Source: a virus. Taken from it: a DNA stretch of 18,814 bases. The number at the start of each line of letters is the position of its first letter. The stretch's first letter is position 1. The DNA lies in UHGV virus genome UHGV-2198042; one strand, 5' to 3'. The notes below the pieces were generated by a model. That model did no database searches, was not told where the DNA came from, and saw only the letters and a list, made by a program, of their open reading frames with translations. This document shows, piece by piece, positions 4,048-18,664 of the stretch. A program made the translations under genes and the position numbers.

Positions 4048-4401
4048 TTATGCCTCGCTTGTTACAGTCGTCTGGCCGTAGATTGTGTCAATGGAGGAAG
4101 TGAAGGTGACGCGACGGCTGGTGCCGTCATAATTGGTATCGAAGGAAAGAATCGACAGAACGCCCGGTGTATCCTGTATGCGTTCGCGTATAGCCAGGAT
4201 GTAGACATCTGATCGCTGCTTCCCAAGCACTGACTGAACATACGGCGTGCCTTCCGTCAGATCGAGAAACCACTGACCGCGCCACAGCTCGAAACGGGTT
4301 TTTACGGCCTGGGCGACACATTCCGGACTGTCGATAAGGAAAGTATCGTCACCCTGGCCGAAAGTGTAATCGCCTTCAGTATCTTCGCGACGGTATCGCA
4401 T
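4048..4401 (-). CDS. small baseplate protein (gpW/gp25 or Mu gp46-like)
   Basis: 117 aa ORF tightly coupled between the spike and J-like genes. Confidence 0.5.
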   Translation of the reverse strand: MRYRREDTEGDYTFGQGDDTFLIDSPECVAQAVKTRFELWRGQWFLDLTEGTPYVQSVLGKQRSDVYILAIRERIQDTPGVLSILSFDTNYDGTSRRVTFTSSIDTIYGQTTVTSEA

Positions 4402-5141
4402 TATTGCGGCCCTCCGGTAGTTCCCCCGCCAGTCTGTACTCCGCCATGTTTATGCGTGGCGACACTGATACCAGAAGCTGTTACGTCATTCGTTACCGTC
4501 ACCGGCCCAAGCATCGTCGCAGTACCGCCGCTTTCGCCCATTCCCTGAGACAAGTTGCCATTAATCGTTACGTTGCCGTTCAGCGTGATAGTCGGGGATG
4601 TGATTGTCGTTCCACCTTCAGCCGTAGCTGTAAGCTGGCCCGGTGTTTTAATGGTGATGTTATGTCCTGCGGCGACTTCTACAAACGCCGCACCATCATC
4701 GGTTCGCAGCTGCGCGGCGCTGGTACTGATACCGCTGATTTTCCGTGCTTGCGACTGTGGGCCAACGATGGCGAACGCATCAGATAAGTCATGCTGGCGC
4801 GGGTCGACGGTCTCCTGCACGCCGCCGCTCTGCCACCAGAAATCGATGCAACGGTCGGCAAAGAGCAGCAGGCACTCGTCGCCTTCTTTAACCGGAAAAG
4901 TCAGCGTACAACCGCCGCCACGCGGGAAGATAACCGGCACATCCACCAGCGGTTTTAATTCGGTGGAGCCATCGCCAACGATACCGCGAAGCGCTACCTC
5001 TACCGTGCAGGTAACAGTGTCAGGATCGAACGACTGAATGATGCCGGGCATCGCTACGCGCATCTGGGTAGACACCGAATCGGCAATGGCCTGCGCGGTC
5101 TGCTGCTCACCGCCGATCTGTGATTGAGTTGGAATTGGCAT
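4401..5141 (-). CDS. baseplate spike/hub protein (P2 gpV / Mu gp45-like)
   Basis: 246 aa; N-terminal region ...PLVDVPVIFPRGGGCTLTFPVKEGDECLLLF resembles the gpV OB-fold; Gly/Thr-rich C-terminus; G-rich RBS before the ATG. Confidence 0.7.
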   Translation of the reverse strand: MPIPTQSQIGGEQQTAQAIADSVSTQMRVAMPGIIQSFDPDTVTCTVEVALRGIVGDGSTELKPLVDVPVIFPRGGGCTLTFPVKEGDECLLLFADRCIDFWWQSGGVQETVDPRQHDLSDAFAIVGPQSQARKISGISTSAAQLRTDDGAAFVEVAAGHNITIKTPGQLTATAEGGTTITSPTITLNGNVTINGNLSQGMGESGGTATMLGPVTVTNDVTASGISVATHKHGGVQTGGGTTGGPQ

Positions 5142-5152
5142 AAAACCCCCAT

Positions 5153-5180
5153 AAAAAAACCAGCCGAAGCTGGTTTGGTA
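5153..5180 (-). terminator. intrinsic terminator-like hairpin (minus strand) upstream of spike gene
   Basis: Minus strand reads aaaccagc-TTCG-gctggttt followed by ttttat; 8-bp perfect stem with a UUCG tetraloop and a U-run. Confidence 0.45.
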
Positions 5181-5363: not shown

Positions 5364-5654
5364 ATGGGATTTAGATTTCGTAAAAGAATCCGGATTGCGC
5401 CCGGACTCGCGATCAACATTAGTAAAAGCGGAGTAAGCACTTCAATTGGTGGTAAAGGTTCCACCATTAACATCGGGAAAAAAGGCGTAAAGATGACAAA
5501 TGGCCTTCCCGGCACGGGGCTGTCGCATACCACTAACCTTTACTCTCCCGGGAAATCGACAGAAAAAAAACAACTTACTCATAAGCAAAAAATAATTAGA
5601 AACATCCTGTTCGTAATTATTGTGTTTATTATAATTAAAGCTCAATATTTTTGA
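5364..5654 (+). CDS. DUF4236-like small protein with C-terminal transmembrane helix
   Basis: 96 aa; N-terminus MGFRFRKRIRIAPGLAINISKSGVSTSIGGKG... resembles DUF4236 proteins from memory; C-terminal ILFVIIVFIII hydrophobic stretch; RBS aggagt 6 nt before ATG; antisense to all neighbouring genes. Confidence 0.55.
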   Translation: MGFRFRKRIRIAPGLAINISKSGVSTSIGGKGSTINIGKKGVKMTNGLPGTGLSHTTNLYSPGKSTEKKQLTHKQKIIRNILFVIIVFIIIKAQYF

Positions 5655-5658
5655 CGCA

Positions 5659-5690
5659 TGCCCGCCTATCTGGCGGGCTATTTTACTTTT
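5659..5690 (+). terminator. intrinsic terminator of the small + strand ORF
   Basis: gcccgcc-tatct-ggcgggc 7-bp GC stem followed by tattttactttt, starting 5 nt after the ORF stop; overlaps the stop codon of the convergent 296-aa gene. Confidence 0.55.
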
Positions 5691-6568
5691 CGGCAGTCGT
5701 ATGTTGCATACTGGCGCGGCGCGTCTATGCTGGCCTGCAACCACTGTGCGTTGAGAATAGCTTTTCCGTTGCGCTTGATGTACTCAAGCCCAACCCAGCG
5801 GCCGGGTTGATTAGTGGCAGCCATCCACTCCATCTTGATGTTATCCGGTTCCCCTTTGGTGCTACCACCAGAGCCGATTGGGCTAATTTTTTGCGTCTCT
5901 GGTTTTGCGCCATTAATTCTGGCCCAACCATCAGCAGAAGACAGATCAATCGTATAAGGACCACAGACTGTTTTGTAATTCACGCCAAGCTTTTCGTTAC
6001 TGTGAACATTACTACTTTTCTCGTAATCAGCCTTGGCTACGTCGTTCATTTTTTGATAGATGGCAGGTTGCTTCAGCGATAACTCATTTAGCTGTTTTAC
6101 AAAATTTTCTCGTGAAACCTCTGCAAGCCCCATGGGTTTTCTATCAATGATATAATCATCATAAATCTTTAATACAACAGCCGAAGAAGAAAGTTTCTTA
6201 GCTAAATCATTTACAAAATTGAGATAATTTAGCTGAGAATTATCTCTTACATCGATAGCCCTAACTCCACCTGTGCCGTACTCATGATATGCAGCATAAA
6301 AAGCTGGTATATTCTCCGGCTTTTTATTGATTGCCTTAATCAACCCGTCAGGACCACAGATCTCGCCACTCCAGTCAATTAGTGACTTCCCTTTAGATTT
6401 CCATGTCTGACAATCATCTGTCGATAAAATTACTATCGGCTGCCATCCTGGACGTCTTTTGTACTCAGCGTTCTGCGCGGAATTAAAGCCTGCACTCGCG
6501 CCCCCGGATAAGAGCAACCCGGAAAGAAAAAGTGCGCTATATCGAATTCCGTTCTTATTTGTACCCAC
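5678..6568 (-). CDS. secreted/periplasmic protein of unknown function (signal peptide)
   Basis: 296 aa; GTG start 7 nt after an AGGAGG RBS and directly after the upstream gene stop; N-terminus MGTNKNGIRYSALFLSGLLLSGGASA/GF is signal-peptide-like; AT-rich relative to flanking tail genes; shares a 17-residue motif with the tape-measure protein. Confidence 0.65.
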   Translation of the reverse strand: MGTNKNGIRYSALFLSGLLLSGGASAGFNSAQNAEYKRRPGWQPIVILSTDDCQTWKSKGKSLIDWSGEICGPDGLIKAINKKPENIPAFYAAYHEYGTGGVRAIDVRDNSQLNYLNFVNDLAKKLSSSAVVLKIYDDYIIDRKPMGLAEVSRENFVKQLNELSLKQPAIYQKMNDVAKADYEKSSNVHSNEKLGVNYKTVCGPYTIDLSSADGWARINGAKPETQKISPIGSGGSTKGEPDNIKMEWMAATNQPGRWVGLEYIKRNGKAILNAQWLQASIDAPRQYATYDCRKVK

Positions 6569-7636
6569 TTAATTTCCTCCTGAGCGAGCTATAGTCGACT
6601 GGCTAATCAGGTCACGAGCCCCACGCGCAAAACACATCAAATCCATGTACCACGCCTGACCTCTGGTGTCACCAGTATAATCGATAGCTTTGACGATATA
6701 AACGCCATCTGTCGCAATGCTGGCAGCCTGTGACGTTGTGCCGGTCAGTACGCGGTTGCCGTTCTCTTCTGTTTCGGTGATGCGACCGGGCGACTGTGCT
6801 ATTTCGCTATTACCGAGCGCGGCGCGGTACACCGAAGCCTGATCGAGCTGGATAAGACCATTAATACGGATGTTTGGGTTTATCAGGCACCGCACGTTTA
6901 CTCCGCCGCCCATCGTTTGTTGCGGCATACCGATCAGGCCAGTATCGGCATTCAACACAATGGCTTCGTGAATATATTTATCCTCCGGCACCATCTGGAC
7001 CTGACCATCCACCAGCTGCCATGTCGCTTTGCACTGCGCAGCAATATTATCCATCACGTTACGGGTGGATGAATAAATCGCACGGCCACGAGGAAACACG
7101 GTATCAGGAAAGTCACCGGTAATGCCCTGCGTCACGCCGAACGCGTTGAAATCCTGCATAGTCGCCCGGTGCAGGTCCGCAACGGTATAACCAGCGGCAA
7201 GCGTGGTGATGGTAGTCGCGTAGAGGAACGCTTCGTGGTTACTGATGGCCTGAATCAGCACCCAGGAATCGGTGATGTTGTCCTTCCCGGTGACGGTGAA
7301 GCGAATATCACCGTCAAATATCAGGCCGTAGTTCTGACCGTTCACCTGCCCTACCTGGTCTGGTGAAATCTCCCGGGCGACACCAACCTGGCTCGCATCA
7401 ACATCCGGCGCAATACCGTCATACCCGGCAATGATGCGAATTTTTGCAAACTCCTGCCCCAGTATCTTGTTCGTGGTATCGGTCGAAAGGTTGTAAATTT
7501 TCACGTTCGCCACGCGTGGCCAGCGTGTGTCTGCCCACTCGATCTGGAACGTGACCTTAAAGTCAGACAGGGAAACGCCCTGCCCGTTCTGGTCCAACAG
7601 TTGCAGCTCAAAATGGCGCATCCAGTTAAGAGACAT
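6569..7636 (-). CDS. tail/baseplate protein (Mu gpP/gp44-like position)
   Basis: 355 aa ORF in the tail module between the tape-measure region and the spike; assignment by synteny only. Confidence 0.5.
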   Translation of the reverse strand: MSLNWMRHFELQLLDQNGQGVSLSDFKVTFQIEWADTRWPRVANVKIYNLSTDTTNKILGQEFAKIRIIAGYDGIAPDVDASQVGVAREISPDQVGQVNGQNYGLIFDGDIRFTVTGKDNITDSWVLIQAISNHEAFLYATTITTLAAGYTVADLHRATMQDFNAFGVTQGITGDFPDTVFPRGRAIYSSTRNVMDNIAAQCKATWQLVDGQVQMVPEDKYIHEAIVLNADTGLIGMPQQTMGGGVNVRCLINPNIRINGLIQLDQASVYRAALGNSEIAQSPGRITETEENGNRVLTGTTSQAASIATDGVYIVKAIDYTGDTRGQAWYMDLMCFARGARDLISQSTIARSGGN

Positions 7637-7638
7637 TT

Positions 7639-7944
7639 CTACTCCTGTACGAAAATGAGGTGGCTGTATGTGCCGAGGTTGGTTTTGGTGGGCTCGTCTG
7701 GTGCGCCCTTATCGGTCGCCACCACCAGCGCGCCATCAATGCCAAGCTGTGGATATTGTCGTAAAAGGTTTACGCCGGTCAGTAGAGGTACGCCAGAGAG
7801 AAGCGCGGCACCGCCGCTATCCATCACGTCCATAATCCAGCCAGCCGCATCACGTCAGATGATCCTGAGTGTATACGTGGTATTGCCCAGCAAAACGCGG
7901 AACTGCTGATTGTCAGGAGAAAGCGGTATTTCGTTAAACTGCAT
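7639..7944 (-). pseudogene. small tail/baseplate gene split by a frameshift
   Basis: Two contiguous reading frames, 7855-7944 (MQFNEIPLSPDNQQFRVLLGNTTYTLRII*) and 7639-7833 (64 aa), overlap at about 7834-7860; together about 100 codons filling the gap between flanking tail genes. Confidence 0.4.
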
Positions 7945-7945
7945 A

Positions 7946-8548
7946 TCATCCCCCGAATGCTGATGTAACGCTTCCGCCCAGCTGGCTCAGCAAGGATTCG
8001 TTTGGCGGTGTAGTGGATTTCATCCCGGAATTCTGCACCGCCGATGTGCTGACGCCATCCTGCATATCTGATTTATCTGCAACGCTAACGCTCTGCGTCT
8101 GCGACATGATCACTTCACGCAGGGTAAGCGTGCAGTTCAGCACGTTCTCGCTGGTTTTATCCGTTGTCACCTCGATGGCTCGCACCAGCATATTGCTGTA
8201 AACCCGCTTTCCGGTCACTACATCGAACGGCACCCGAGAGGACTGGAGATCCAGTAGTTGCTGATAGGTCTCTTTCGGGCTAAGTCCGGCGCTGAGGCCG
8301 ATTGACGATGTATCAATGAAGTCCAGCAACGAACCGCCACCTGCGAAGCCGCATTCCATCGTGACTTCGCTGGGGCGCTTATACGCATGATCGGCGATGA
8401 AACCCGACGCGCTATTCGTTGTTGGCTTCTCCACCGGGTGCTCAGTAATTTCGAGCGCATCAGAATGCTTTTCGGAAACGACCACGCTGGGGATCAGCAG
8501 GCCAATTCGCCGGGATTGCTGGCGAAAAATCGCTGATAAAATATCCAT
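7946..8548 (-). CDS. tail protein of unknown function
   Basis: 200 aa ORF immediately downstream of the tape-measure gene; family not recognised. Confidence 0.45.
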   Translation of the reverse strand: MDILSAIFRQQSRRIGLLIPSVVVSEKHSDALEITEHPVEKPTTNSASGFIADHAYKRPSEVTMECGFAGGGSLLDFIDTSSIGLSAGLSPKETYQQLLDLQSSRVPFDVVTGKRVYSNMLVRAIEVTTDKTSENVLNCTLTLREVIMSQTQSVSVADKSDMQDGVSTSAVQNSGMKSTTPPNESLLSQLGGSVTSAFGG

Positions 8549-10185
8549 TATCTCGGTCCTGCGGGGAGTTGCTGGGTTAACTGTGAATTCACGCCCTTTT
8601 GACGGTCAACAGTCAAACGGGCAGCCTCGCGCGGATCGGAAACGCCGTGGATGTTAATGTTCGTTTCCTGCTGAATCACCGGGGCGCTGGTGGGCATATT
8701 GCTCATCACTTTCGGAATGTAGTTGCGCGTTTCCTGCGGCATTAGCCCCATTCCATAACGCTTAACATTCCCGATCCCCCAGTTATATGATGCCAGTGCT
8801 TTGCTAAGGTCTCCGCCGTTCTGCCGCAACAGCTGGCTGAGGTACTTAGCGGCTGCCTGAGCTGACTTTTCCGGGTCGAATACATCATTCCCACGCAGGC
8901 CCATGTCGCGCGCCGTGCCATCCATAAACTGAAACAGTCCTTTCGCGCCTGCGCCGGATATGGCGAACTGGTTACCACCCGACTCGGTGATCGCCACGCT
9001 TTTCAACAGGCCAGCTGGCAGCTGATAAAGCGACTCCAGTTTATTGAACATTGGCCCCATCCAGTCGAGCAATACCTTGCCCTGGGCCGTCGCCTGAGGT
9101 CGCTTAACCGACTGCGCTCGCTGCTCCGGCTCCAGTCCCATCTCCTGAATTTTTCGCTGGATTTGCTCATCAGTGAAAAAGTCTTTGCCGGGATTTTCCT
9201 TTCTCAGCGCCTCATATGCCTGCTGCCTTTCAGGTACGATATTGCTGCCTATACCGCCAATCGACGCCATTTCTTCACTGGTGGTCGGCGTATTGTTGGC
9301 AGGAATGAACATAAGCAACCATGGATTCTTGATTGCCAGCTGTGCGATCCCCTGCGCCAGCTTACCCAGCCCACCAATAGAGCCGCCAATTGCCTTACCA
9401 AGCCCCATAAATCCGGCGACAAGTCGCCCGATGCCAGTGAGCATGGAGACCAGCTTCGCACCAGCCAGAAAGCCAAACAGGATGGTGAGCGTATTTTTCC
9501 AGCCGCCGAGGTTGTCCTTGAGCTCCAGAAACTTATCGCGCAGCCACTTGAACACCTTCTTTGCCTGCTCAATTTCTGGCTGCCATTTGGACCAGTCAAT
9601 CAGGCTTTTACCGCCCTCTTTCCACGTCTGGTAATCGTCGTACAGCAATCCGATCGCCAGAATCAGTGTGGTGATAATTCCAATCGGGGATTTCAGGAAC
9701 GCAGAATTAAGCAGACGCCATGCGACCAGTAGAGCACCGAATATTTTCAGCAGATTTTTACTGCCATCGTCAAGACGCTTCCACCAGTCGATGACAGAGC
9801 CAGCGCCCTGTATCAGCCGCCACGCCATTCTCGTGAATGCGTTCGCAAGCCAGATCACGCCTTTAATAACTCTGGTCAGCGTCTCTTCAATCTTCGGGAA
9901 ATTGTCGAGGATGCGCCGCCGCAGGCTGTCCAGCGAACCAGCCAGGCCACCAGCGAGGTTTGAGCCGATCTTGTCCCGCATGATGCCGAACAGCGACGTA
10001 AGCCCGCGCATGGACGTCATGAATTTGTTGGACTGAACAGCCGCTTTATCAGCGTTGAACCCTGTCTTTTGCAGCATCGACTGGTAATCGGCGGTAAAGC
10101 CATTCATGCCGCGCCGCATCGCCATCAGCGTGTTTTCATCGATGCCAAGCATCTGCGCGTATTGTTTCGCGCGGTAATACGGCAT
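8548..10185 (-). CDS. tail tape-measure-like protein with C-terminal lytic transglycosylase (SLT) domain
   Basis: 545 aa; several Gly/Ala-rich hydrophobic segments; C-terminal ESGGNQFAISGAGAKGLFQFMDGTA...ASYNWG resembles SLT-family transglycosylase motifs; position before the baseplate genes. Confidence 0.65.
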   Translation of the reverse strand: MPYYRAKQYAQMLGIDENTLMAMRRGMNGFTADYQSMLQKTGFNADKAAVQSNKFMTSMRGLTSLFGIMRDKIGSNLAGGLAGSLDSLRRRILDNFPKIEETLTRVIKGVIWLANAFTRMAWRLIQGAGSVIDWWKRLDDGSKNLLKIFGALLVAWRLLNSAFLKSPIGIITTLILAIGLLYDDYQTWKEGGKSLIDWSKWQPEIEQAKKVFKWLRDKFLELKDNLGGWKNTLTILFGFLAGAKLVSMLTGIGRLVAGFMGLGKAIGGSIGGLGKLAQGIAQLAIKNPWLLMFIPANNTPTTSEEMASIGGIGSNIVPERQQAYEALRKENPGKDFFTDEQIQRKIQEMGLEPEQRAQSVKRPQATAQGKVLLDWMGPMFNKLESLYQLPAGLLKSVAITESGGNQFAISGAGAKGLFQFMDGTARDMGLRGNDVFDPEKSAQAAAKYLSQLLRQNGGDLSKALASYNWGIGNVKRYGMGLMPQETRNYIPKVMSNMPTSAPVIQQETNINIHGVSDPREAARLTVDRQKGVNSQLTQQLPAGPR

Positions 10186-10291
10186 GTTGTTGAGCTTTTG
10201 CCCAACCCGCCCTGATAGCTGCCTGTGTGGCGTTTAAATCTTTCAGGTACTCACGGGCAAACAGCTCTTGTTTGTCGGTGAGCTTTGCCAT
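10136..10291 (-). pseudogene. terminase small subunit N-terminal stub
   Basis: 51-codon frame MAKLTDKQELFAREYLKDLNATQAAIRAGW... matches the conserved terS N-terminal HTH motif, then loses similarity and stops; overlaps the tape-measure start in another frame; GGAG RBS upstream. Confidence 0.5.
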
Positions 10292-10531
10292 TGTTGGCTC
10301 CGTTTATCCGTTAAAAGGGATATCAGTTAAGTTATCCCGTGCAGGGTATAAGCCATTGTCGAGACCACTCATTGAATGGCCTCTGCAATAACCGATGTCT
10401 TTCCATCAGCCCGCCACCACAAAGAATCTTTTTTGCCATAAGGCTGGAGGTTCATCTTTCAGTGGCTGCCAGTGTTATTTCCCCACTTACTGGCTTGGGT
10501 TGCTTCGTGGTACTGCCGTAACTGGTGGTGC

Positions 10532-10643: not shown

Positions 10644-10901
10644 CTACTTCGCTTTTGCTTCCGCTCGCTTACGCCGGCGCTCTTCTTTCCTCTCGGCTTT
10701 TGCCATGTCCATGAATGCCTGCATGATCGAGTTCCGCATCATGTAGCTAACAAAGTGATGATTGACACAGCCGTTGAGGCGCAGCTGCTCGCCAAACTCA
10801 TCCACCGAGGCCAATGCTTCCCTCATGCCCTTCTCGCCTTTCATGAACTCTGAGAAGTCGCGCCCCGCTCTGGAGGCGCATTCAATGACACGATCACTCA
10901 T
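10644..10901 (-). CDS. hypothetical protein with basic C-terminal tail
   Basis: 85 aa ORF whose start overlaps the KilA-N gene stop (ATGA); C-terminus AKAERKEERRRKRAEAKAK; hairpin after the stop. Confidence 0.45.
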   Translation of the reverse strand: MSDRVIECASRAGRDFSEFMKGEKGMREALASVDEFGEQLRLNGCVNHHFVSYMMRNSIMQAFMDMAKAERKEERRRKRAEAKAK

Positions 10902-11395
10902 CCCGGAAGCCCGGGGATCGTAATCTGCAGCTGGTTAGCCAGGGAGTTAATCTCAGCGACCAACACTGGCTTCGTATAGCGCCATGCTGCCAGCCCTTGT
11001 CCGCAGAAGCTCGCCATGTCTTTCTTCTGGTCAAACTCATGACATTTCATGTTGAGCTGCGCACTTAAGCTGTTGCGATGCTGAAGTTCTCCGGTGAAGT
11101 AGTCATCGAGGACTTTATAGGCCGCGTACTTGAACCCGGGGTTTAACCAAGCCGCATAATCGTAAGCAACAAACTTCCCGCCATATGTTCCACCGTGTAC
11201 ACCGCGCTCAGTAAAAACCACAGATTCGTGGTTTTTCTCCAGCTCGGCTAAGAACTCTTTGGTCTGCTTGTTTCGCAGGTAGTGGTAAGGCGATTCAGAT
11301 TCACTTTTACCACTAGCTTTCCACATATCAGTGAGGCAGATCATGCCATCTTCACCGATACGAATTGGTTGATTGAAGAGGGTTAATGATTTCAT
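10898..11395 (-). CDS. KilA-N domain protein
   Basis: 165 aa; N-terminal LTLFNQPIRIGEDGMICLTDMWKASGK...YHYLRNKQTKEFLAELE fits the KilA-N DNA-binding fold pattern from memory. Confidence 0.55.
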   Translation of the reverse strand: MKSLTLFNQPIRIGEDGMICLTDMWKASGKSESESPYHYLRNKQTKEFLAELEKNHESVVFTERGVHGGTYGGKFVAYDYAAWLNPGFKYAAYKVLDDYFTGELQHRNSLSAQLNMKCHEFDQKKDMASFCGQGLAAWRYTKPVLVAEINSLANQLQITIPGLPG

Positions 11396-11509
11396 AGCGT
11401 GTACCTACTCTTTGAAATGAACCTTTGCCGCACAGGAAACCAGCCCACCGAGGCTCGCCAGCACTAACTGGTATCCTCAAAGGCCCATTCCAAAGGGGCA
11501 GGTTCGGTG

Positions 11510-11566
11510 TAAAAAACATGCGTTGCGGTACGCATTTATTGCAAAAAGCCCCGCATCGCGAGGCTC
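11510..11566 (-). terminator. tandem intrinsic terminators downstream of Rz
   Basis: Minus strand: agcctcgc-gat-gcggggct + ttttt, then atgcgt-accgca-acgcat + gtttttt. Confidence 0.5.
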
Positions 11567-11596
11567 ATTAAATGGACTTTGTGATTTGCAAAAAAA

Positions 11597-12064
11597 TTAT
11601 TTCAGGCATTGCGTCCTGATGTATTCCTGCAGGTAGTTAACCTGCGCGGTTATCTTGTCGATTCCACTTCGTAGACGGTAATAATTGAGTTCAGCATCTG
11701 CTGTAAGTCTTGGGCTTTCTCCATCGCCCATGCTGCTGGCTCCGGTCGTTGACTTTGCACAGGTGGCGGCGACTTGCAGGCGCTTACGGCCAGCAATGAC
11801 ATCGCTATGCAGACGCTCAATGGTTTCTTTCGCATCAGCCAGTTCTCCGGTGTATTTGGCATCCAGTGCAGCGACATCACGCTGGCGGGTCTGCATGTCT
11901 TTAATGGTGGCGGTCGCCAGGAGGAGTTTCTCAGTGGCCTTATCGCGCTGGTCTCTGTAAGTGATGGCGTTGTCGCGGTAGTGGTTCACGAAGAAAGCCA
12001 GTGCGCCGATTAACGCCAGCACCAGCAACTGCAGCCAGTAACGCTTAACCAGTGCGCTAATCAT
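11597..12064 (-). CDS. Rz: i-spanin Rz
   Basis: 155 aa; N-terminal TM helix then ...[18 protein letters not shown]...[20 protein letters not shown] closely resembles lambda Rz; start overlaps R stop. Confidence 0.85.
11650..11835 (-). CDS. Rz1: o-spanin Rz1 (embedded in Rz, +1 frame)
   Basis: Internal start [20 protein letters not shown] with a lipobox (LAVSAC) and Pro-rich mature region, fully nested in Rz as in lambda. Confidence 0.7.
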
Positions 12065-12510
12065 GACAGGAACAGAGCTCGCTCTGCCTTGCGGCGATTC
12101 GTGAGCCCCGGCATCACCTTTCCGCCTGATTTATTCCAGCGCAGAAATTCATCTGCCGCGCCTTTTATATCGCCAGCATTCAGCTTTTTCAGCAGTGTAG
12201 ATGTGGAAAGAGCACGCGACCCAACGTTGTAAGCGAACGACACCAGTGCGTCGAACTGGCCTTGTGTCAGCTTCACCCTGACAACTTTCAGCACGTCATT
12301 CTCATAACCAACAAGCCCTGTTTTCAGAAGCCTGTCAGCGGTTTGCTGGTCGATAGTCATACCGCGCTTTACTGGCTTTCCGTCAACCGGATGGGTCCAG
12401 CCATAGCCGATGGTCCACGGCGCATCTCCCGTTCCGGGGTCGGGGTAAGCAGTCAGCCGACAACCTTCAAATTTTTTTATCAGAGCAATTCCGTCAGGAC
12501 TGGTTTGCAT
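12061..12510 (-). CDS. R: endolysin, T4/P22-type lysozyme (GH24)
   Basis: From internal Met [16 protein letters not shown]... about 149 aa; ...[14 protein letters not shown]...[11 protein letters not shown] matches the P22 gp19-type lysozyme from memory; the ORF-track N-terminal extension overlaps the holin gene. Confidence 0.85.
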
Positions 12511-12817
12511 CGTCAACTCCCGCCTTTTTTGCTGCAAGTTTTTTAATAAGATTGCCGATCGAATCGGTGCCGATGTATCCAATAAAGACGCTGGCTATGT
12601 AGGCGAGGTTGCTGCTCAGGCCGATAAAGTCCAGAAGGTCACGAACGAACCAGGCAATCATCGCGCACATCAGCGCATCAATTAGCGTTTTTGTTACCGC
12701 GCCGCCGTTATAGCGACCACGCAGATACGCCATGATAAAAGCCAGCATTGCACCAATACCCTGCTCCTTGGCGGCAAGTAGCGCAGCGATGAAATCTTGT
12801 TTGTATGGCATTTTCAT
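12494..12817 (-). CDS. S: class I holin, lambda S-like (dual-start MKM)
   Basis: [39 protein letters not shown]... is near-identical in pattern to lambda S; GGAGG RBS; the ORF-track upstream start (12826) is probably not used. Confidence 0.85.
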
Positions 12818-13025
12818 AGGCCTCACCTCCGATTTTCCGGATGGTGCTGTGTGTGTGTTTGAAAAGGGTCAGGCTTCACGGGCTGGATTTATCAACAAAG
12901 CACGTAGCGGATGATTCCCGTGAGCCTGAAATTGATGAATATGTCTGAAATAACTAGACCATTAGTAAAACAACTCGATAAATGTGGTTAAATGAGACTA
13001 CGTTCTCACAACTTAATTAGTACCA

Positions 13026-13196
13026 ATGATTATCAAGCCCTGCCCCTACTGCGGAAAGTTAATTAACCCAGAATCACTTGTGTGTAGCCACTGCCGGATA
13101 GTGAATCCTTTTGTGAAGGCCAGCAGAAGAGAAAAAGCGAAGAATGTATTAGTAATCGCTCTCGTTGCTGCTTTTTTAATTTGGATGATTCTCTGA
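13026..13196 (+). CDS. small zinc-ribbon protein with C-terminal TM helix
   Basis: 56 aa below the ORF-track cutoff: MIIKPCPYCGKLINPESLVCSHCRIVNPFVKASRREKAKNVLVIALVAAFLIWMIL; CxxC...CxxC plus hydrophobic tail; no strong SD. Confidence 0.4.
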   Translation: MIIKPCPYCGKLINPESLVCSHCRIVNPFVKASRREKAKNVLVIALVAAFLIWMIL

Positions 13197-13633
13197 GTTG
13201 CCAGTTTTCAATGAAGATAATGCGGGCAAAAAAAGCCTGCTCGGACGAACAGGCATGAAAAATAACAATACCGTCAAGGAGGTGGCGCCGGGTGCCTCCC
13301 GGTGGAACAGCCCCAGCCGACTAGTTCCGCGCAAACAAACCTGGACAAAAAAGTTTGACTGGACGCCCCGCCGCATAGGGGGATTCACCACGAACCAAAA
13401 GATAAAATCATCCGGTGACCGGGGCAATATCTAACCGGAACTTTTCAGAATCACTTATTGTTTCCTGGAGAGTACATGAGCGTTGGTGAATTCACGTGAT
13501 GCTTTTGGATGAGCGCTGAACCCAAAGGTCAGTATTTTCACACAGCAATTTTGCAAAAAGCAGCGCCCATTCAAAACCAGGTCGCTTTCCAGTCACTCCG
13601 GGGAACCCATCATCGCAGACTGGAAAGCTTTTA

Positions 13634-13662
13634 CTGGAGCGGGCAAAGGAATCGAACCTCTG
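13634..13662 (-). tRNA. tRNA-like 3' fragment (T-arm plus acceptor-3', tRNA-Gly-like)
   Basis: Minus strand reads ...agaggTTCGATTcctttgcccgctCCA, resembling the 3' end of E. coli tRNA-Gly; no complementary 5' acceptor strand found upstream, so likely a relic. Confidence 0.3.
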
Positions 13663-13671
13663 ACGCGCAGC

Positions 13672-13926
13672 TTATTTCCAGCTTTCGCCATTTAAGGCTG
13701 AAAGCACTGTTTGATGTGTTACACCAAACATTCTCCCTAGCCCTCTGGCTCCATAAACCTTATGTCGTGGAATGTAGTTTTCTCTGATGAACTGGACGCT
13801 GTCCATTGTTAGCTTGCTCATACCATTCAGCTCACCAGCTACTAAGTAGCTAAGGTCAAATTTGGTTTTCTGAATGTGGCATGCAGAACATAGTAGTTGG
13901 CACTTTTCAACCTCAGCATAAAACAC
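13672..13926 (-). pseudogene. HNH endonuclease C-terminal fragment with HTH
   Basis: 84 aa starting at GTG directly after an in-frame TAG; contains CQLLCSACH (zinc-binding half of an HNH motif) and an HTH-like segment, but lacks the N-terminal catalytic part. Confidence 0.4.
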
Positions 13927-14133
13927 CTAATCTGAGTGATAGTGCATCTCGCTTACATTTGCTGATTTGGTGGAAGGGTCTATGTGGTCAAACTGAAGCG
14001 AATATTCGGATCCGCAACTCGCGCAACGACCACCCAACTTTTCCACGGTCTTAGCAAGCCTAGCCCTTCGATTAAGATAGTAATCTTTGCTCGGCATTTA
14101 CCACCTCTACCATTGGAGCTAAACCAGCATGTT

Positions 14134-14208
14134 TGGCGGGATAGCGTGGACTCGAACCACGATAAGAAGGTTAACAGCCTTCCGTAATGACCTTTATACG
14201 ACTGACCC
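14134..14208 (-). tRNA. tRNA-like element, anticodon GUU (Asn-like), probably degenerate
   Basis: 75 nt on minus strand: acceptor gggtcag, D-arm with A14 and GG, anticodon stem gaagg/ccttc with loop cuGUUaa, T-arm cgtgg-TTCGAGT-ccacg, 3' ctatccc-g-CCA; acceptor stem has 2 central mismatches. Confidence 0.35.
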
Positions 14209-14298
14209 AAATAAAAAAGCCACCGTTGCAACTTAAGAGTCACTAACGGCAGCTTATGCGAATAGTGTTGCTCATTTGCTCAATGATGTCAACACGTT

Positions 14299-14787
14299 CT
14301 ATGCTACATGTTTAATTTTCTCTACACGTTTCCGGTTTTTAAACGCACTATCCAGAACCGGGTAAATCATAAACAACGAGGCATTGAGGATTTCGTCAAC
14401 TTCCCGACGACAGGTTGCGAGCGATGGTTTTTGAATGCGCCCTCCGCCCCGGCATAACATCTTGCGAGGTCTTGCGACGCGATGATAGTAAGATGCAATG
14501 GCGTGCTTGGAAGATCCATGGGCGTAGTAGCTGAGGAGGATGCCAAAGGCTTTCTTGTCAATGTACATGACGGAATCGACGACCTGAGAAATCAACATTC
14601 CATCATCATCATTGCACATTGGCCTTGTCATAACTCTTCCCGGCTCTACGCTCTCCATGAACTTCGCTATTACGCTGCTCATGCGCTTTTCAAGACGACC
14701 TGAATAAACCCATGCCCCCCACAGTTCAAGCCAGCCATTCAGCCACTCGTGCTGCTCTTTGGTGAGGTTTAGTTCTCTTATGCCCAT
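14299..14787 (-). CDS. Q: late-gene antiterminator Q (non-lambda Q family)
   Basis: 162 aa ORF immediately downstream of ninH and upstream of the lysis cassette; several Cys/His; no similarity to lambda Q itself but the size fits small Q proteins (phage 21 type, from memory). Confidence 0.6.
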   Translation of the reverse strand: MGIRELNLTKEQHEWLNGWLELWGAWVYSGRLEKRMSSVIAKFMESVEPGRVMTRPMCNDDDGMLISQVVDSVMYIDKKAFGILLSYYAHGSSKHAIASYYHRVARPRKMLCRGGGRIQKPSLATCRREVDEILNASLFMIYPVLDSAFKNRKRVEKIKHVA

Positions 14788-14972
14788 CGTCTTCCCCTCT
14801 TGCCCTGTTTGACCATCAGGACGCCGTTAACTATTACGTGACGCTCGCCTTTGCTGTCTCGGTTGTACTTAAGCACTGTTCCTCTTGCGCAGGAAAGCAT
14901 CCTTGCCACTTCGGTCTGATTGCCTCGTGTCTGGATAAGAAGCTCTGGTATCGTTTGAATTGTGGCGTTCAT
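14778..14972 (-). CDS. ninH: NinH
   Basis: 64 aa; ...TIPELLIQTRGNQTEVARMLSCARGTVLKYNRD...HVIVNGVLMV closely matches lambda NinH as I recall it. Confidence 0.8.
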   Translation of the reverse strand: MNATIQTIPELLIQTRGNQTEVARMLSCARGTVLKYNRDSKGERHVIVNGVLMVKQGKRGRRWA

Positions 14973-15331
14973 ACGTTCTCCAGTTCGGTGATTTTTATTC
15001 CAAGCCGTCCGCCTGGTACTTTCACGCCACGAATTACGCGAATGTCATCGAATTGCTCGTCGTCTTCCGCAAATCCGGCGTGGATAAGGGAGTCGAGTAA
15101 ACCTTTCAGGATGTTGTCGAGGTCGCGGCGGCGGGAGTCTGGAACGTCTGCGATGACTTTGATGCGGAGTCGTGATTTGGTGAAAATGTCTAACTTAAGT
15201 TGGCGGATGATTTGCTGAACGTCTTTTCGGTATTTCTGGCCTTTATCGCTGATGTAGTATTGGCTTCCCCGTCTTCGCCAGTAGGTATTCACCGACGGCG
15301 GGTATGGAAGCACAAACTGATATTCGTTCAT
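14969..15331 (-). CDS. rusA: Holliday junction resolvase RusA
   Basis: 120 aa; LPYPPSVNTYWRRRG... and catalytic-region motif RRRDLDN match the RusA family. Confidence 0.85.
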   Translation of the reverse strand: MNEYQFVLPYPPSVNTYWRRRGSQYYISDKGQKYRKDVQQIIRQLKLDIFTKSRLRIKVIADVPDSRRRDLDNILKGLLDSLIHAGFAEDDEQFDDIRVIRGVKVPGGRLGIKITELENV

Positions 15332-15618
15332 GACTTAATCTTCCCCTCCTTCAGCAGTATCGCCTGCGTCCTGATCACGCCTTCGAGGTGGTAAAGCCTG
15401 GCGTCTTTGTTGTCGAGATTATGGGTGCGTCGGTCGATTTCATCGTGACACGCGCTACAAGCCCATGCGCCGATCAGGTCGTCAGGCTTCATTCCCGTTC
15501 CGCAAATTCCAGCCATCCGGTAATGTGCCAGAACTGTAGTTTCAGGGTTGCCATTGCATACGCCGTAAATACGTACCTGGCATTCTCTGCCGCGCGCTTC
15601 TTTGCGTAGGTTAGCCAT
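15328..15618 (-). CDS. YbcO-like DUF1364 protein (nin region)
   Basis: 96 aa; RKEARGRECQVRIYGVCNGNPETTVLAHYR...ACSACHDEIDRRTH resembles E. coli DLP12 YbcO from memory; start overlaps rusA. Confidence 0.65.
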   Translation of the reverse strand: MANLRKEARGRECQVRIYGVCNGNPETTVLAHYRMAGICGTGMKPDDLIGAWACSACHDEIDRRTHNLDNKDARLYHLEGVIRTQAILLKEGKIKS

Positions 15619-16340
15619 TAAGCAGCCTCTCCTGTTACTTTCAGCATTCCGTTATCGAGCAACTTTCTGGTCAGCCACTGTTGACCGCGCCCGGTGATTT
15701 TTGTGGTGAACGATATCTGTATTCCGTGATTTGTATTGACCGCTGTTTCTTTCACTGTGAAATAGCCGCGATCCATATATTCCTGCATTGGCACATTGCG
15801 CCGGGAACCTGAAGCAATAAGGATTTTGTGATCGCGCATCCACGCAAACAGTTTGTTTGGACCAATACCGACAACCTTTGCAAAGTTTCCAATCAAAATT
15901 CCGCTGGCCTCGCCAACGCGATCGGCAAACTCAACTTTAGGTGCGGCAATTGCGAGCTGGTTTTCCAGTTGCATTTTCTGCTCAGCAAGATCAGCAGCAA
16001 GGCGCAACGCTTCTGGTAGCGTTTTGGGGATATTAACCGCAGCTTCTTCAAGCTCTCGCCAGCGGTCAACAAGGCGAGCGGTGAATTCCGGCGACAACTG
16101 GGCAACAACGACAATACTGTCTCGCTTACCTTGTTCGCCTTCGAAGACGTAATGCTCGTACTGAACATTGAACCCTAAGTTATTGATTCTTTCGGAAACC
16201 TCAATTTGAGGAAGCCGGATAACACCATTTTTAGCCAGCGTTTCGATGGTACGTTTCACATTGTCATGACGCTTACCAACCAACTCAGCGATTTCAATGC
16301 TTGTCATTTTGATGGCATTGCCATTTATTAACTCATTCAT
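15618..16340 (-). CDS. Rha-family regulatory protein / antirepressor with KilAC C-terminal domain
   Basis: 240 aa; N-terminal MTSIEIAELVGKRHDNVKRTIETL (Rha-like), C-terminal ...FAKVVGIGPNKLFAWMRDHKIL...TTKITGRGQQWL (KilAC-like). Confidence 0.7.
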   Translation of the reverse strand: MNELINGNAIKMTSIEIAELVGKRHDNVKRTIETLAKNGVIRLPQIEVSERINNLGFNVQYEHYVFEGEQGKRDSIVVVAQLSPEFTARLVDRWRELEEAAVNIPKTLPEALRLAADLAEQKMQLENQLAIAAPKVEFADRVGEASGILIGNFAKVVGIGPNKLFAWMRDHKILIASGSRRNVPMQEYMDRGYFTVKETAVNTNHGIQISFTTKITGRGQQWLTRKLLDNGMLKVTGEAA

Positions 16341-16503
16341 CGTCTTCTTCCTCGTGCATCGAGCTATTCGGATCGCTCATCAGTTCTGCGCAGCAGTGCT
16401 CACACACGTGAACTTCCAGCACATGCAGCTTCTGACCGTAGTTAGCGCACGTTAAAGCTCGCTCGACACTTCCTTGTTCGTAACTTCGATTTTGGTCAAT
16501 CAC
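16333..16503 (-). CDS. ninF: NinF-like zinc-binding small protein
   Basis: 56 codons below the ORF-track cutoff, GTG start after a GAGGA RBS: ...SVERALTCANYGQKLHVLEVHVCEHCCAELMSDPNSSMHEEEDDE, near-identical in pattern to lambda NinF from memory; stop overlaps the Rha gene start. Confidence 0.6.
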   Translation of the reverse strand: MIDQNRSYEQGSVERALTCANYGQKLHVLEVHVCEHCCAELMSDPNSSMHEEEDDE

Positions 16504-16524
16504 CTTGTTTTCCTCGCACGTTCT

Positions 16525-17559
16525 CTAATCGACCAGAATCATGCCAACACATCCTTTTTCTCGCTTGATTCGACGACTTTCGCTGACGATTTGAGCCAGA
16601 GATAATCCCGGCGTGTCGTCGATGTAAAGCAGGTCGATTTCACTCAAGCGATTGGCTGTTTCGATCGCCCTGTTGAAGTCACCATCGTAATCACCCTGAT
16701 AGCCGTCATCAGCGTCATTTGTCGCCGGAATGTAAAAAATATTCGGGTTAACACCTGACTTCTGTCCTACCAGCTTTTCCAGTATCTGGTCGCCTGGCAT
16801 TTCAAGACTGAACATCAGAGCGGGCTTTTTCTCATGCACTGCGCAGTTGATTGCCATCTGGCTGTATAGCGTCGTTTTCCCCATCTTAGGGCGAGCGCCA
16901 ATGACGAACAGAGAGCCTTTCACCAGACCTTTCGGTGACAGCATCCTGTCCAGAGATGGGATCCCTGTGCTCATTCCTCGTTGTTCGCCTGACGGGTCAA
17001 ATCGCTTCTCAAGGTCGCTAACCCAGTCTTCCATGACCTCACCAAATGAGCGAAGGCCGCGACGCGATCCGGTTTTTGCATGGTCTGTCAGTTGCGTGAA
17101 AATCGCCTGAATAGCTTCGTACTTCTGCGTTGCAGTCATTCCGTTGCGGGAATAGAGCAATTCCGTCGCTTCAGTCATGCGGTTGATGGCGTAGCGTTCC
17201 ATTGCGGTTTCACGAACCTGCATTGCATAGGCAACGATGTTTGCTGCGCTTGGCGTGTTCTTTGCGATCTCAGCGATATAAGCAAAACCGCCAACAGACG
17301 CCGTTAACGATTTACGCTCCAGTTCATCGAAAAGCGTCAGGCCATCTACTGGCTTTTGCTCCCGGTGCATTCTGGTTATTTCTTCGAAAAGGATTTTGTG
17401 TGGTCGGCTGTAAAATGAATCAGGCTTCAGCATCGCCAGAACTTTCTGGACGCGCTCACTGCTGTCATCATCCAGAAGCAATCCACCAATCACCGCCTGC
17501 TCTGCCTCGATGCTATGGGGCGGCGCATAAAAATTATCGGTCATCGTGTTCACCCTCAC
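16525..17559 (-). pseudogene. DnaB-like replicative helicase (P22 gene 12 type), 3'-truncated at Walker B
   Basis: 344 aa; Walker A GARPKMGKT present; ends ...GCVGMILVD* exactly where the DnaB Walker B motif (hhhhDYLQ) should continue; about 100 C-terminal residues missing. Confidence 0.7.
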
Positions 17560-18115
17560 GAACTTTCAGGTAGGTATTATCGTTAAGCAGGAAATCAAAT
17601 CCCTTTTTGTGCCAGACGGTTCCGCGTTGATGGTTTGGGCGCTCTTCGAACATCCATCGGCAATTTTCGCCAACGTAGCTCAAATAATTTCTCCAGTCCT
17701 GCATCGTGAACCCATGCCCGTCAAGTTGGCGTGTTATTACTCCGGCTTTGCGCCAGAACGTTCGGATCTGGTTTTTACGCTTGTCATTCAGTGCGCGGAT
17801 TCTTGGCGCTTCAGGAAGGATTTCGTGGTAAGCATCGACAACATCCTGACAGCTGACGGAAGGTTTTTTCTTGTCAGACTTTTTGTCTGCTGTGGCACTC
17901 TCTAATACGTCAGTATTAGAGATATTATTTATATTATTGTTTATGGACAACTGTTGGACAACCGTTGGACAATCTCCGCTGAGAGCCGCACCATTACTGG
18001 TGTTTGCGTTGGACAACCGTTGGACAACCGTTGGACAATTTTTTGACTGAAAATCGTCATATTTAACGATTGTAAACAGGCTAAATTTCTTCCCCATCGC
18101 GCAAATATTAAGCAT
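17534..18115 (-). CDS. replication initiator (O-like, iteron-containing); start codon uncertain
   Basis: Overlaps helicase start as in O-P / gene 18-12 arrangements; contains the iteron cluster in its 5' part (repeated CPTVVQRLS); the ORF-track N-terminal 37 codons overlap the int-homologous segment, so an internal Met (about 18115 or 18097) is more likely. Confidence 0.5.
   Translation of the reverse strand: MLNICAMGKKFSLFTIVKYDDFQSKNCPTVVQRLSNANTSNGAALSGDCPTVVQQLSINNNINNISNTDVLESATADKKSDKKKPSVSCQDVVDAYHEILPEAPRIRALNDKRKNQIRTFWRKAGVITRQLDGHGFTMQDWRNYLSYVGENCRWMFEERPNHQRGTVWHKKGFDFLLNDNTYLKVREGEHDDR
17944..18038. repeat. replication origin iterons: six copies of an 11-bp unit NNGTTGGACAA in two triplets, flanked by an AT-rich tract
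   Basis: Seen directly: atggacaa/ctgttggacaa/ccgttggacaa and gcgttggacaa/ccgttggacaa/ccgttggacaa; AT-rich tattagagatattatttatattattgtttat adjacent (about 17900-17943). Confidence 0.7.
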
Positions 18116-18217
18116 CCCTTTCGACTCAAAAGTCCGTAATAAGCTCCGAACTTTGTTGTCGGGGATGAATGTTTCTCTGACCAGCGACGGGCGTCCAGTT
18201 GTCCGATAGCTCCCTGT

Positions 18218-18664
18218 ACCGGGCAACGAGTCGGTGATTTATGCGAAATGAAGTGGTCTGATATCGTAGATGGATATCTTTATGTCGAGCAAAGCAAAAC
18301 GGGCGTAAAAATTGCCATCCCTACAACATTGCATGTTGATGCTCTCGGGATATCAATGAAGGAAACACTTGATAAATGCAAAGAGATTCTTGGCGGAGAA
18401 ACCATAATTGCATCTACTCGTCGAGAACCGCTTTCATCCGGCACAGTATCAAGGTATTTTATGCGCGCACGAAAAGCATCAGGTCTTTCCTTCGAAGGGG
18501 ATCCGCCTACCTTTCACGAGTTGCGCAGTTTGTCTGCAAGACTCTATGAGAAGCAGATAAGCGATAAGTTTGCTCAACATCTTCTCGGGCATAAGTCGGA
18601 CACCATGGCATCACAGTATCGTGATGACAGAGGCAGGGAGTGGGACAAAATTGAAATCAAATAA
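18218..18664 (+). pseudogene. int: integrase C-terminal fragment (lambda Int residues about 209-356)
   Basis: Translation ...TGQRVGDLCEMKWSDIVDGYLYVEQSKTGVKIAIPT...HELRSLSARLYEKQISDKFAQHLLGHKSDTMASQYRDDRGREWDKIEIK* is near-identical to the lambda Int C-terminus from memory; upstream of about 18218 the frame is unrelated and hits a stop at 18140-18142. Confidence 0.85.

Follow-up and report, generated by a model that had tools for sequence, protein, structure and literature searches.

The 18,814 nucleotides of the UHGV virus genome UHGV-2198042 analyzed here ("the window") carry the baseplate module of a contractile-tailed temperate phage, and within it a gene for a 296-amino-acid (aa) protein (positions 5678 to 6568) that belongs to an unannotated family of exported proteins bearing a segment that looks like part of a tape-measure protein (TMP). 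In our view the resemblance is best explained, tentatively and somewhat short of probably, by envelope-level exclusion of related phages through imitation of the TMP segment. This explanation is favored because of the analogy to known systems, the export signal, the occurrence of relatives as cargo of mobile elements and the tie of the family to one phage type; that the similarity is functional, that genome delivery is its target and when the gene would be expressed are points that we infer.

A tape-measure-like segment in a predicted exported protein

An earlier sequence-only reading had paired the 296-aa protein with a tape-measure-like protein encoded at 8548 to 10185, and both open reading frames (ORFs) were confirmed on the minus strand. 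The features on which the comparison rests are the following.

5678-6568, minus strand: gene for the 296-aa, putatively exported, two-domain protein; GTG start directly after the stop codon of the hub gene, with a GGAGG Shine-Dalgarno sequence 7 nt upstream
6491-6568, minus strand: predicted signal peptide (residues 1-26, ending ...LLLSGGASA and followed by GF), read from the sequence
6014-6469, minus strand: all-alpha N-domain (residues 34-185), from an AlphaFold2 model
6308-6433, minus strand: tape-measure-like segment (residues 46-87), from HHalign, conservation and the model
5681-5977, minus strand: C-terminal 8-stranded beta-barrel, avidin-like (residues 198-296), homologous to the secreted proteins of 116-123 aa encoded in the same slot
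8548-10185, minus strand: TMP remnant (545 aa; phrog_2276, E = 5.8e-144, profile positions 195-658 of 673)
9529-9654, minus strand: TMP segment matched by the 296-aa protein (residues 178-219), directly after the second hydrophobic helix

Residues 51 to 67 of the 296-aa protein (window 6368 to 6418; DDCQTWKSKGKSLIDWS) and residues 183 to 199 of the TMP remnant (window 9589 to 9639; DDYQTWKEGGKSLIDWS) share the motif DDxQTWKxxGKSLIDWS with 14 of 17 identities, as the sequence-only reading had reported, and BLASTP of this single pair returned an E value of 2e-6 (about 35 bits). When the 296-aa protein was shuffled 300 times, no best 17-mer had more than 9 identities, and its BLOSUM62 score was 29.3 ± 3.7 (maximum of 48) against the 78 observed, which places the match about 13 standard deviations above the shuffles; it is not a product of chance, even allowing for the roughly 300 possible protein pairs in the window. 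In the TMP the motif follows a transmembrane (TM)-like helix (SPIGIITTLILAIGLLY) and in the 296-aa protein the hydrophobic part of helix 1, bearing out the earlier remark that a hydrophobic segment precedes it in both. The WQP tripeptide that had also been offered as a shared trait proved to be a coincidence: it precedes the motif in one protein but follows it in the other, fails to align, and is conserved in neither family.

The DNA encoding the two motifs is identical at 32 of 51 nucleotides, different codons encode 7 of the 14 identical residues, and for both serines the codon families themselves differ (TCN versus AGY); the statement that the DNA differs at most synonymous positions was thus roughly right. 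Over the 17 loci that hold both genes, 29 to 37 of the 51 nucleotides agree. A recent duplication is excluded, as the sequence-only reading had supposed, and so is recent gene conversion, because the motif DNA has diverged in all of these co-resident pairs and the serine codon families differ.

Comparison of family profiles by HHalign (27 N-domain sequences against 66 tape-measure proteins) paired residues 46 to 87 with TMP residues 178 to 219 over 42 columns (95.5% probability, E = 1.4e-8). No other part of the N-domain aligned to tape-measure proteins in this profile-profile comparison, so that about 42 of its roughly 150 residues resemble the TMP; a word-index search with the tape-measure mid-segment recovered fragments only. 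In the model the segment runs from the helix 1 end through an ordered loop and helix 2, with the motif itself occupying the helix 1 end and the well-ordered loop to helix 2 (predicted local distance difference test [pLDDT] of >90). Cys53 and Cys71 bracket this loop, which is predicted to be closed off by a disulfide.

Conservation of the segment and the wider N-domain family

Among 66 distinct tape-measure proteins only one 17-mer was more conserved than the motif (0.91, against a mean of 0.61), which has the consensus [DE]DYxTWKEGG[KNQ]SLI[DN]W, and it was present whether the phage had the 296-aa type of gene ("long form"), a gene for a signal peptide and barrel only ("short form") or neither. 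It lies ahead of further hydrophobic segments and the SLT domain, and it also occurs in Salmonella phage SEN34 and Acinetobacter phage Ab105-1phi; being kept from enterobacterial to Acinetobacter phages, it is therefore taken to be a functionally constrained target. On the other side of the comparison, a search of 5.8 billion proteins with the N-terminal 200 aa found, at 90% clustering, just 11 relatives (284 to 299 aa, identity down to 41%), and in their alignment DDCxTWKxxGKSLI[DN]WSGExC was among the best-kept stretches, with Cys53 and Cys71 invariant. Conservation of the motif at the protein level, proposed from the window alone, was accordingly seen among homologs of both proteins, and the outcome that the sequence-only reading had named as refuting, a motif no commoner in homologs than chance allows, did not occur.

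The N-domain family is largely invisible in databases because public annotation miscalls the gene: PGAP often annotates just a 123-aa or 101-aa C-terminal piece from an internal Met, or a pseudogene (as in locus L001). An exhaustive N-domain profile search of 1.8 billion representatives found 22 proteins; two repeat proteins from this search (P0029 and P0031) were spurious low-complexity matches. Besides the long form there were lipoproteins of 350 to 374 aa with other C-terminal halves and a 269-aa protein, P0032, and at least three different C-terminal halves occur on N-domain proteins in the baseplate module of one phage type. Within that phage type, the SEN34-like temperate myophages, P0028 and P0025 are encoded between hub and spike genes, as the long form is, and P0032 between plug and hub genes. 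P0013 and P0014 are accessory cargo of satellite-like integrase-AlpA-primase islands, and P0022 sits at a chromosomal site without tail genes. A search of 50,697 deposited phage genomes found no N-domain homolog.

Although P0032 and the window protein share only 23% identity, P0032 aligns to the TMP of its own phage (E = 1e-4); its match takes in an upstream "SP.G.I" stretch, and it matches the TMP where the window protein does not. The 296-aa protein is one member of this exported family, which bears a look-alike of a tape-measure segment and which databases have left unannotated. One of the islands deserves separate description: that encoding P0014 (locus L099, 7124 to 19465) lies between scaffold-like and decoration/capsid genes of a SEN34-like phage and carries an integrase, a TumE-type toxin-antitoxin pair, P0014, a DUF927 primase and a second DUF2280 (small-terminase-like) gene, resembling a satellite integrated inside its likely helper.

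Architecture, export and selection

The exact 296-aa protein is recorded in Escherichia coli on 43 contigs, with near-identical versions in Citrobacter freundii. The ratio of nonsynonymous to synonymous substitution rates (dN/dS), determined against the L001 and L010 copies, was about 0.06 for the N-module and 0.06 to 0.08 for the barrel, and for this reason the whole ORF is counted as a real, translated gene under purifying selection.

The signal peptide predicts export to the periplasm. A lipobox was found in 34 of 44 distinct N-termini of the family, none of them with Asp after the Cys; by the standard sorting rule, a lipobox without Asp at position +2 predicts anchoring in the outer membrane, facing the periplasm. 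The window allele does not fit the lipobox pattern [LVI][ASTVI][GAS]C, reading LSGG instead: codon 23 (6500 to 6502) has changed from the lipobox Cys to Gly here and in L011, and LSGC is kept in the 97%-identical L013 and in C. freundii P0035. Judged by these N-termini the family is a lipoprotein family but the window allele is not a lipoprotein, although a signal-peptidase I site (between ASA and GF) is still plausible in the Gly23 allele; the signal peptide seen by the sequence-only reading is thus upheld as a predicted export signal, minus the lipobox Cys that most of the family retains. A second lineage without this Cys, P0007, has Tyr at that position, yet its protein stays conserved.

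AlphaFold2 modeled the full protein as two domains, with pLDDT of <50 for residues 1 to 33, and the N-domain alone with a pLDDT of 91.5 and a predicted template modeling score (pTM) of 0.84. The N-domain had no sequence match in Pfam, NCBIfam, PADLOC or the PDB, and comparison of its structure with the PDB by Foldseek gave nothing significant. A weak BLASTP match of the 296-aa protein to the SLT region of the TMP had raised the idea of a degenerate SLT/lysozyme-like domain, which was rejected, there being no SLT profile match and no lysozyme-like structural neighbor. The barrel (residues 198 to 296) matches phrog_3443 (E = 3.4e-34, profile positions 21 to 114 of 115), and invariant Cys pairs are found in both domains of the family.

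A variable slot in the baseplate module

Complete phages related to this locus include Citrobacter phage Omnitron and Salmonella phage SEN34 (genus Brunovirus). The gene order runs from the TMP (Pfam SLT) through Dit-like, Pam3-type plug and hub genes to the 296-aa gene and a gpV-like spike with an Apex motif, followed by gpW-like, Baseplate_J and DUF2612 genes and by fiber and fiber-assembly genes; the TMP, hub, 296-aa and spike genes all lie on the minus strand. The slot occupied by the 296-aa gene is defined by the following features.

6569-7636, minus strand: baseplate hub gene (phrog_196, E = 9e-85), the upstream border of the slot
4401-5141, minus strand: gpV-like spike gene (N-terminal phage-protein domain PF18352 and GpV Apex motif), the downstream border of the slot
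5839-6593, minus strand: variable cassette relative to short-form loci, from blastn against E. coli 873.10 (L002)
5364-5654, plus strand: DUF4236 gene, convergent to the 296-aa gene (PF14020, E = 1.8e-20); also annotated in E. coli relatives

The hub gene additionally gave a Pfam E217_GP41 match that was weak and under the curated cutoff. Phage Omnitron and most related prophages have, in the hub-spike slot, a gene for a signal peptide and barrel only (116 to 123 aa); L002, L003 and about 64 further loci have a phrog_3443 barrel gene in this position, and the long form was present in 16 of the 80 viral loci retrieved. No association of the long form with one type of tape-measure C-terminal lytic domain was seen, near-identical long forms standing beside different tape-measure variants. 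The window is 98% identical to L002 up to position 5838 and 94% identical from position 6594, and between these points 755 bp replace 213 bp. Because short-form loci carry the signal peptide and barrel alone, and given the cassette breakpoints, the barrel reads as the resident of the slot and the helical N-module as the addition. The suggestion of a tape-measure-derived domain fused to a new C-terminal module was therefore right about two modules and wrong about which is new, the motif-bearing N-module having been added to a resident barrel.

The GC content is 0.36 to 0.47 in the cassette and 0.52 to 0.57 in the flanks. The sequence-only reading had called the gene a moron, and the compositional difference, together with presence/absence polymorphism between otherwise similar phages, agrees with that label; the gene lies in a low-GC, variably occupied slot of the tail module. 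Of the transcription signals expected for a moron, the 3' end has a GC hairpin, perfect over 7 bp (5660 to 5678), between the stop codons of the DUF4236 and 296-aa genes, and promoter-like sites were no commoner than in shuffles; a promoter of its own is the part of the moron description that was not detected. The DUF4236 gene lies within the same low-GC insert; its product has a hydrophobic C-terminus, and the gene is 98% identical between long-form and short-form loci. What the slot holds varies between short, long and tandem forms, and SEN34 has a truncated barrel gene. Locus L074 (5287 to 7507) carries four tandem paralogs of the short secreted barrel gene (106 to 124 aa), interleaved with a duplicated fragment of the 3' end of the hub gene, so that the slot behaves as a recombination hot spot.

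The window prophage is defective because a fusion of terS to the tape-measure gene deletes the head, sheath and tube genes and the plug gene carries a nonsense codon. At the deletion junction (10206/10207) the 5' end of terS (its first 29 codons, in another reading frame) is joined to the middle of the tape-measure gene, leaving a prophage without head, sheath, tube and chaperone genes. The Pam3-type plug gene (7639 to 7944, minus strand) has an in-frame stop at codon 30 (RII*RDAAGW versus RIIWRDAAGW in relatives) and is a pseudogene here. The 296-aa ORF is full length despite this decay.

The tape-measure-like ORF was correctly recognized as a TMP, and it is of the phrog_2276 kind (the SLT-bearing type of SEN34-like myophages), with its profile match, membrane-type helices (hydrophobic runs at residues 146 to 163, 166 to 182 and around 231 to 297) and C-terminal lytic domain (SLT lytic transglycosylase, 8749 to 9051; Pfam E = 2e-25), but it is not a full-length gene. 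The remnant is truncated at its N-terminus, about 148 aa short of relatives of 693 to 699 aa, and homology to intact relatives stops at position 10206; its downstream neighbors (Dit-like, plug and hub) are those expected, whereas upstream stands the terS fusion. A second, degenerate motif copy, QGKVLLDWMGP, was seen at residues 366 to 380 of the remnant (9040 to 9090, minus strand), just before the SLT domain, and is present in 16 of the 66 tape-measure proteins (the SLT-type subset). Residues 128 to 134 hold a third copy, GSVIDWW, which is weak.

Proposed exclusion of related phages by tape-measure imitation

In the mechanism that we propose, which retains as a hypothesis the superinfection-exclusion decoy of the sequence-only reading, the helix 1-loop-helix 2 start of the N-domain is a diverged copy, or an imitation, of the most conserved mid-part of the TMP of this phage type. 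When a related tail fires, its TMP travels through the periplasm and opens a channel across the inner membrane, and the exported protein would present its look-alike segment in that same compartment. There the look-alike might occupy the partner site of the segment, on another part of the TMP or on a host factor, or it might co-assemble with the incoming TMP as a poison subunit; with either course, DNA entry would fail.

Several observations are counted for this proposal. The motif resembles its counterpart beyond chance and is among the most conserved stretches of both families, the family profiles align over 42 columns, and the tape-measure motif is constrained from enterobacterial to Acinetobacter phages. 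Two lineages that are 23% identical, the long form and P0032, each match the TMP of their own phage. N-domain proteins are encoded in the baseplate module of one phage type, and others are carried in islands beside toxin-antitoxin genes, a usual kind of place for exclusion and defense genes. Finally, the family combines predicted export, invariant Cys pairs, strong purifying selection and a confidently modeled fold.

Several observations weigh against it. No promoter belonging to the gene was detected, the cassette bringing only 25 bp upstream of the start codon and promoter-like matches being at chance level; as the gene also abuts the hub gene, its expression may be late-lytic only, which is less typical of exclusion genes of prophages. 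Comparison of motif variants with the cognate TMP revealed no co-variation: the motif hardly varies among tape-measure proteins, and the exported protein shows D-to-N changes regardless. Scores against the tape-measure motif hidden Markov model (HMM) fell from 19 to 30 bits in long forms to 3 to 15 bits in remote members of the N-domain family, which retain just DD...GGKSL. The N-domain profile found no tape-measure protein at E = 1e-3 among 1.8e9 proteins, and the similarity is therefore significant only as a targeted comparison. PADLOC gave no match for the 296-aa protein, and it showed no relation in sequence or fold to known exclusion or defense proteins. Lastly, the window allele lacks the lipidated Cys and lies in a defective prophage. 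The wider claim is that exported lipoproteins of this family, carried by SEN34-like phages and by their satellites, imitate with their first helix-loop-helix the segment behind the membrane helices of the TMP, and exclude relatives by competing with or poisoning the interaction of that segment during channel formation; we regard it as possible but doubtful.

Comparison with known systems

Precedents exist for phage proteins that act on the TMP. In T4, the TM helix of the TMP docks on an adjacent helical domain, and Imm binds the TMP next to the TM helix and blocks channel formation; HK97 gp15 has been proposed to act like Imm (bioRxiv 10.64898/2026.03.06.709160). Imm and gp15 resemble the protein considered here in being phage-encoded envelope proteins shown or proposed to block DNA entry through the TMP near its membrane-inserting helices. 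They differ in being small inner-membrane proteins with no reported tape-measure resemblance, whereas the 296-aa protein is predicted to be periplasmic or lipid anchored, with two domains and a look-alike segment. The SNIPE nuclease likewise associates with tape-measure proteins (PMC13190303).

Ltp-type lipoproteins function in superinfection exclusion, and Ltp of Streptococcus thermophilus phage TP-J34 is, like the long-form family, a prophage-encoded lipoprotein outside the cytoplasmic membrane, where it blocks DNA injection (PMC3952083). It acts in a Gram-positive host, however, and no target mimicry has been described for it. The Ltp fold consists of helix-turn-helix repeats and is different from that of the N-domain; its target, as Bebeacua et al. 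reportedly found in 2013, is the TMP. T5 Llp and Cor-type proteins are small phage lipoproteins encoded beside tail or receptor-binding genes that guard the infected or lysogenic cell from re-infection (PMC9586334). Unlike the mechanism proposed here, these inactivate the outer-membrane receptor FhuA, and they have neither a tape-measure-like segment nor a sequence match to the 296-aa protein.

Also comparable are the small secreted phrog_3443 proteins of SEN34-like phages, of which the C-terminal 99 residues are a clear member, encoded in the same slot. Those proteins consist of a signal peptide and barrel (116 to 123 aa); in the window protein a signal peptide and 150-aa helical domain stand in place of their signal peptide. 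Earlier examples of short motifs common to tape-measure and other proteins come from mycobacteriophages. Tape-measure proteins with host-like or lytic motifs (SLT, Rpf-like) offer a further parallel, since the partner here is a TMP with a lytic transglycosylase domain, but in our case the shared motif is non-enzymatic and follows membrane helices, and its other carrier is an exported protein of the same phage type.

How the TMP opens the inner membrane for DNA entry is poorly understood, and few exclusion proteins are known at that step. If the imitation is real, it would show that a short and extremely well conserved stretch of the TMP is critical to function, identify the 17-residue motif as a site of key interactions when contractile-tailed phages deliver their genomes, and supply a natural inhibitor with which to probe it. 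It would also be the first superinfection exclusion by molecular mimicry of a TMP, and the exclusion and defense repertoire of prophages and satellites would gain a group of exported proteins that had no annotation before. Should the similarity be only an evolutionary relic, it would still be a clear case of a structural-gene fragment recycled into an accessory protein.

Alternative explanations

Such a relic is the strongest competitor to exclusion by imitation, if a somewhat less likely one. An old tape-measure fragment, comprising the TM-helix end and the turn behind it, would have been captured at the origin of the N-domain and kept for folding, in a protein with an unrelated function that might be the masking or modification of an outer-membrane receptor, as by Cor and Llp, or another benefit to the envelope of the lysogen. 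The motif is indeed integral to a compact domain (pLDDT of >90, two invariant Cys), remote members retain only part of it, synonymous sites are deeply diverged and there is no co-variation with the cognate TMP. What a relic leaves unexplained is why lineages that are 23% identical each stay closest to the TMP at different positions, and why the family is so tightly tied to one phage type and one slot.

It is also possible, although unlikely, that the protein has a late-lytic role, being made with the tail genes and exported to stop progeny from firing into lysing or infected cells, or to modulate tail-released SLT activity. Such a role is hard to square with a slot that is dispensable and highly variable (short, long or tandem, and with the barrel gene truncated in SEN34), with homologs that lie in satellite-like islands or, in one case, at a chromosomal site that has no tail genes, and with a gene that is intact in a decayed prophage. 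In its favor, the gene is co-oriented with and abuts the hub gene, with a ribosome-binding site alone between them, no cassette-borne promoter was found, and T5 Llp provides a precedent as a phage lipoprotein that protects against re-infection (PMC9586334).

That the window copy is a decaying, functionless remnant seems less likely again. The change of Cys23 to Gly, the terS-to-tape-measure deletion, the plug nonsense codon and the frequent calling by PGAP of a 123-aa piece only might each be read as decay, but against this the ORF is full length, the exact protein is found on 43 contigs, a plausible signal-peptidase I site (ASA before GF) is left, dN/dS is low, and the P0007 lineage is conserved without the Cys as well. 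A chance or compositional match, which the shortness of the motif and the failure of about 35 bits to reach significance in a database-wide search might suggest, is scarcely credible and, as far as sequence statistics go, is refuted because of the shuffle test (z of about 13), conservation of the motif in both families, the profile-profile E value of 1.4e-8 and the repetition of the match in the P0032 lineage.

Other features of the element

A terminator-like hairpin followed by a T-run lies at 5157 to 5176 (minus strand), just upstream of the spike start and within what is expected to be a continuous late operon. In the junction region of the terS fusion (10186 to 10320), an 87-bp stretch is 100% identical to terS of Pantoea phage PA-1. 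Upstream of it, positions 10644 to 18664 are lambdoid and include a lysis and early region, with a KilA-N/ORF11CD3 protein, Rz-like, lysozyme, holin, Q-like, RusA and DnaB-type helicase genes and, at 18248 to 18664 on the plus strand, a C-terminal fragment of a lambda-type integrase; two phage types are combined in this chimeric element. In Acinetobacter phage Ab105-1phi (locus L106, 7179 to 7535, minus strand) a secreted protein of the LprI lysozyme-inhibitor family (PF07007, E = 1e-9) is encoded directly after the lysozyme-domain tape-measure gene, another exported accessory gene beside a lytic TMP.

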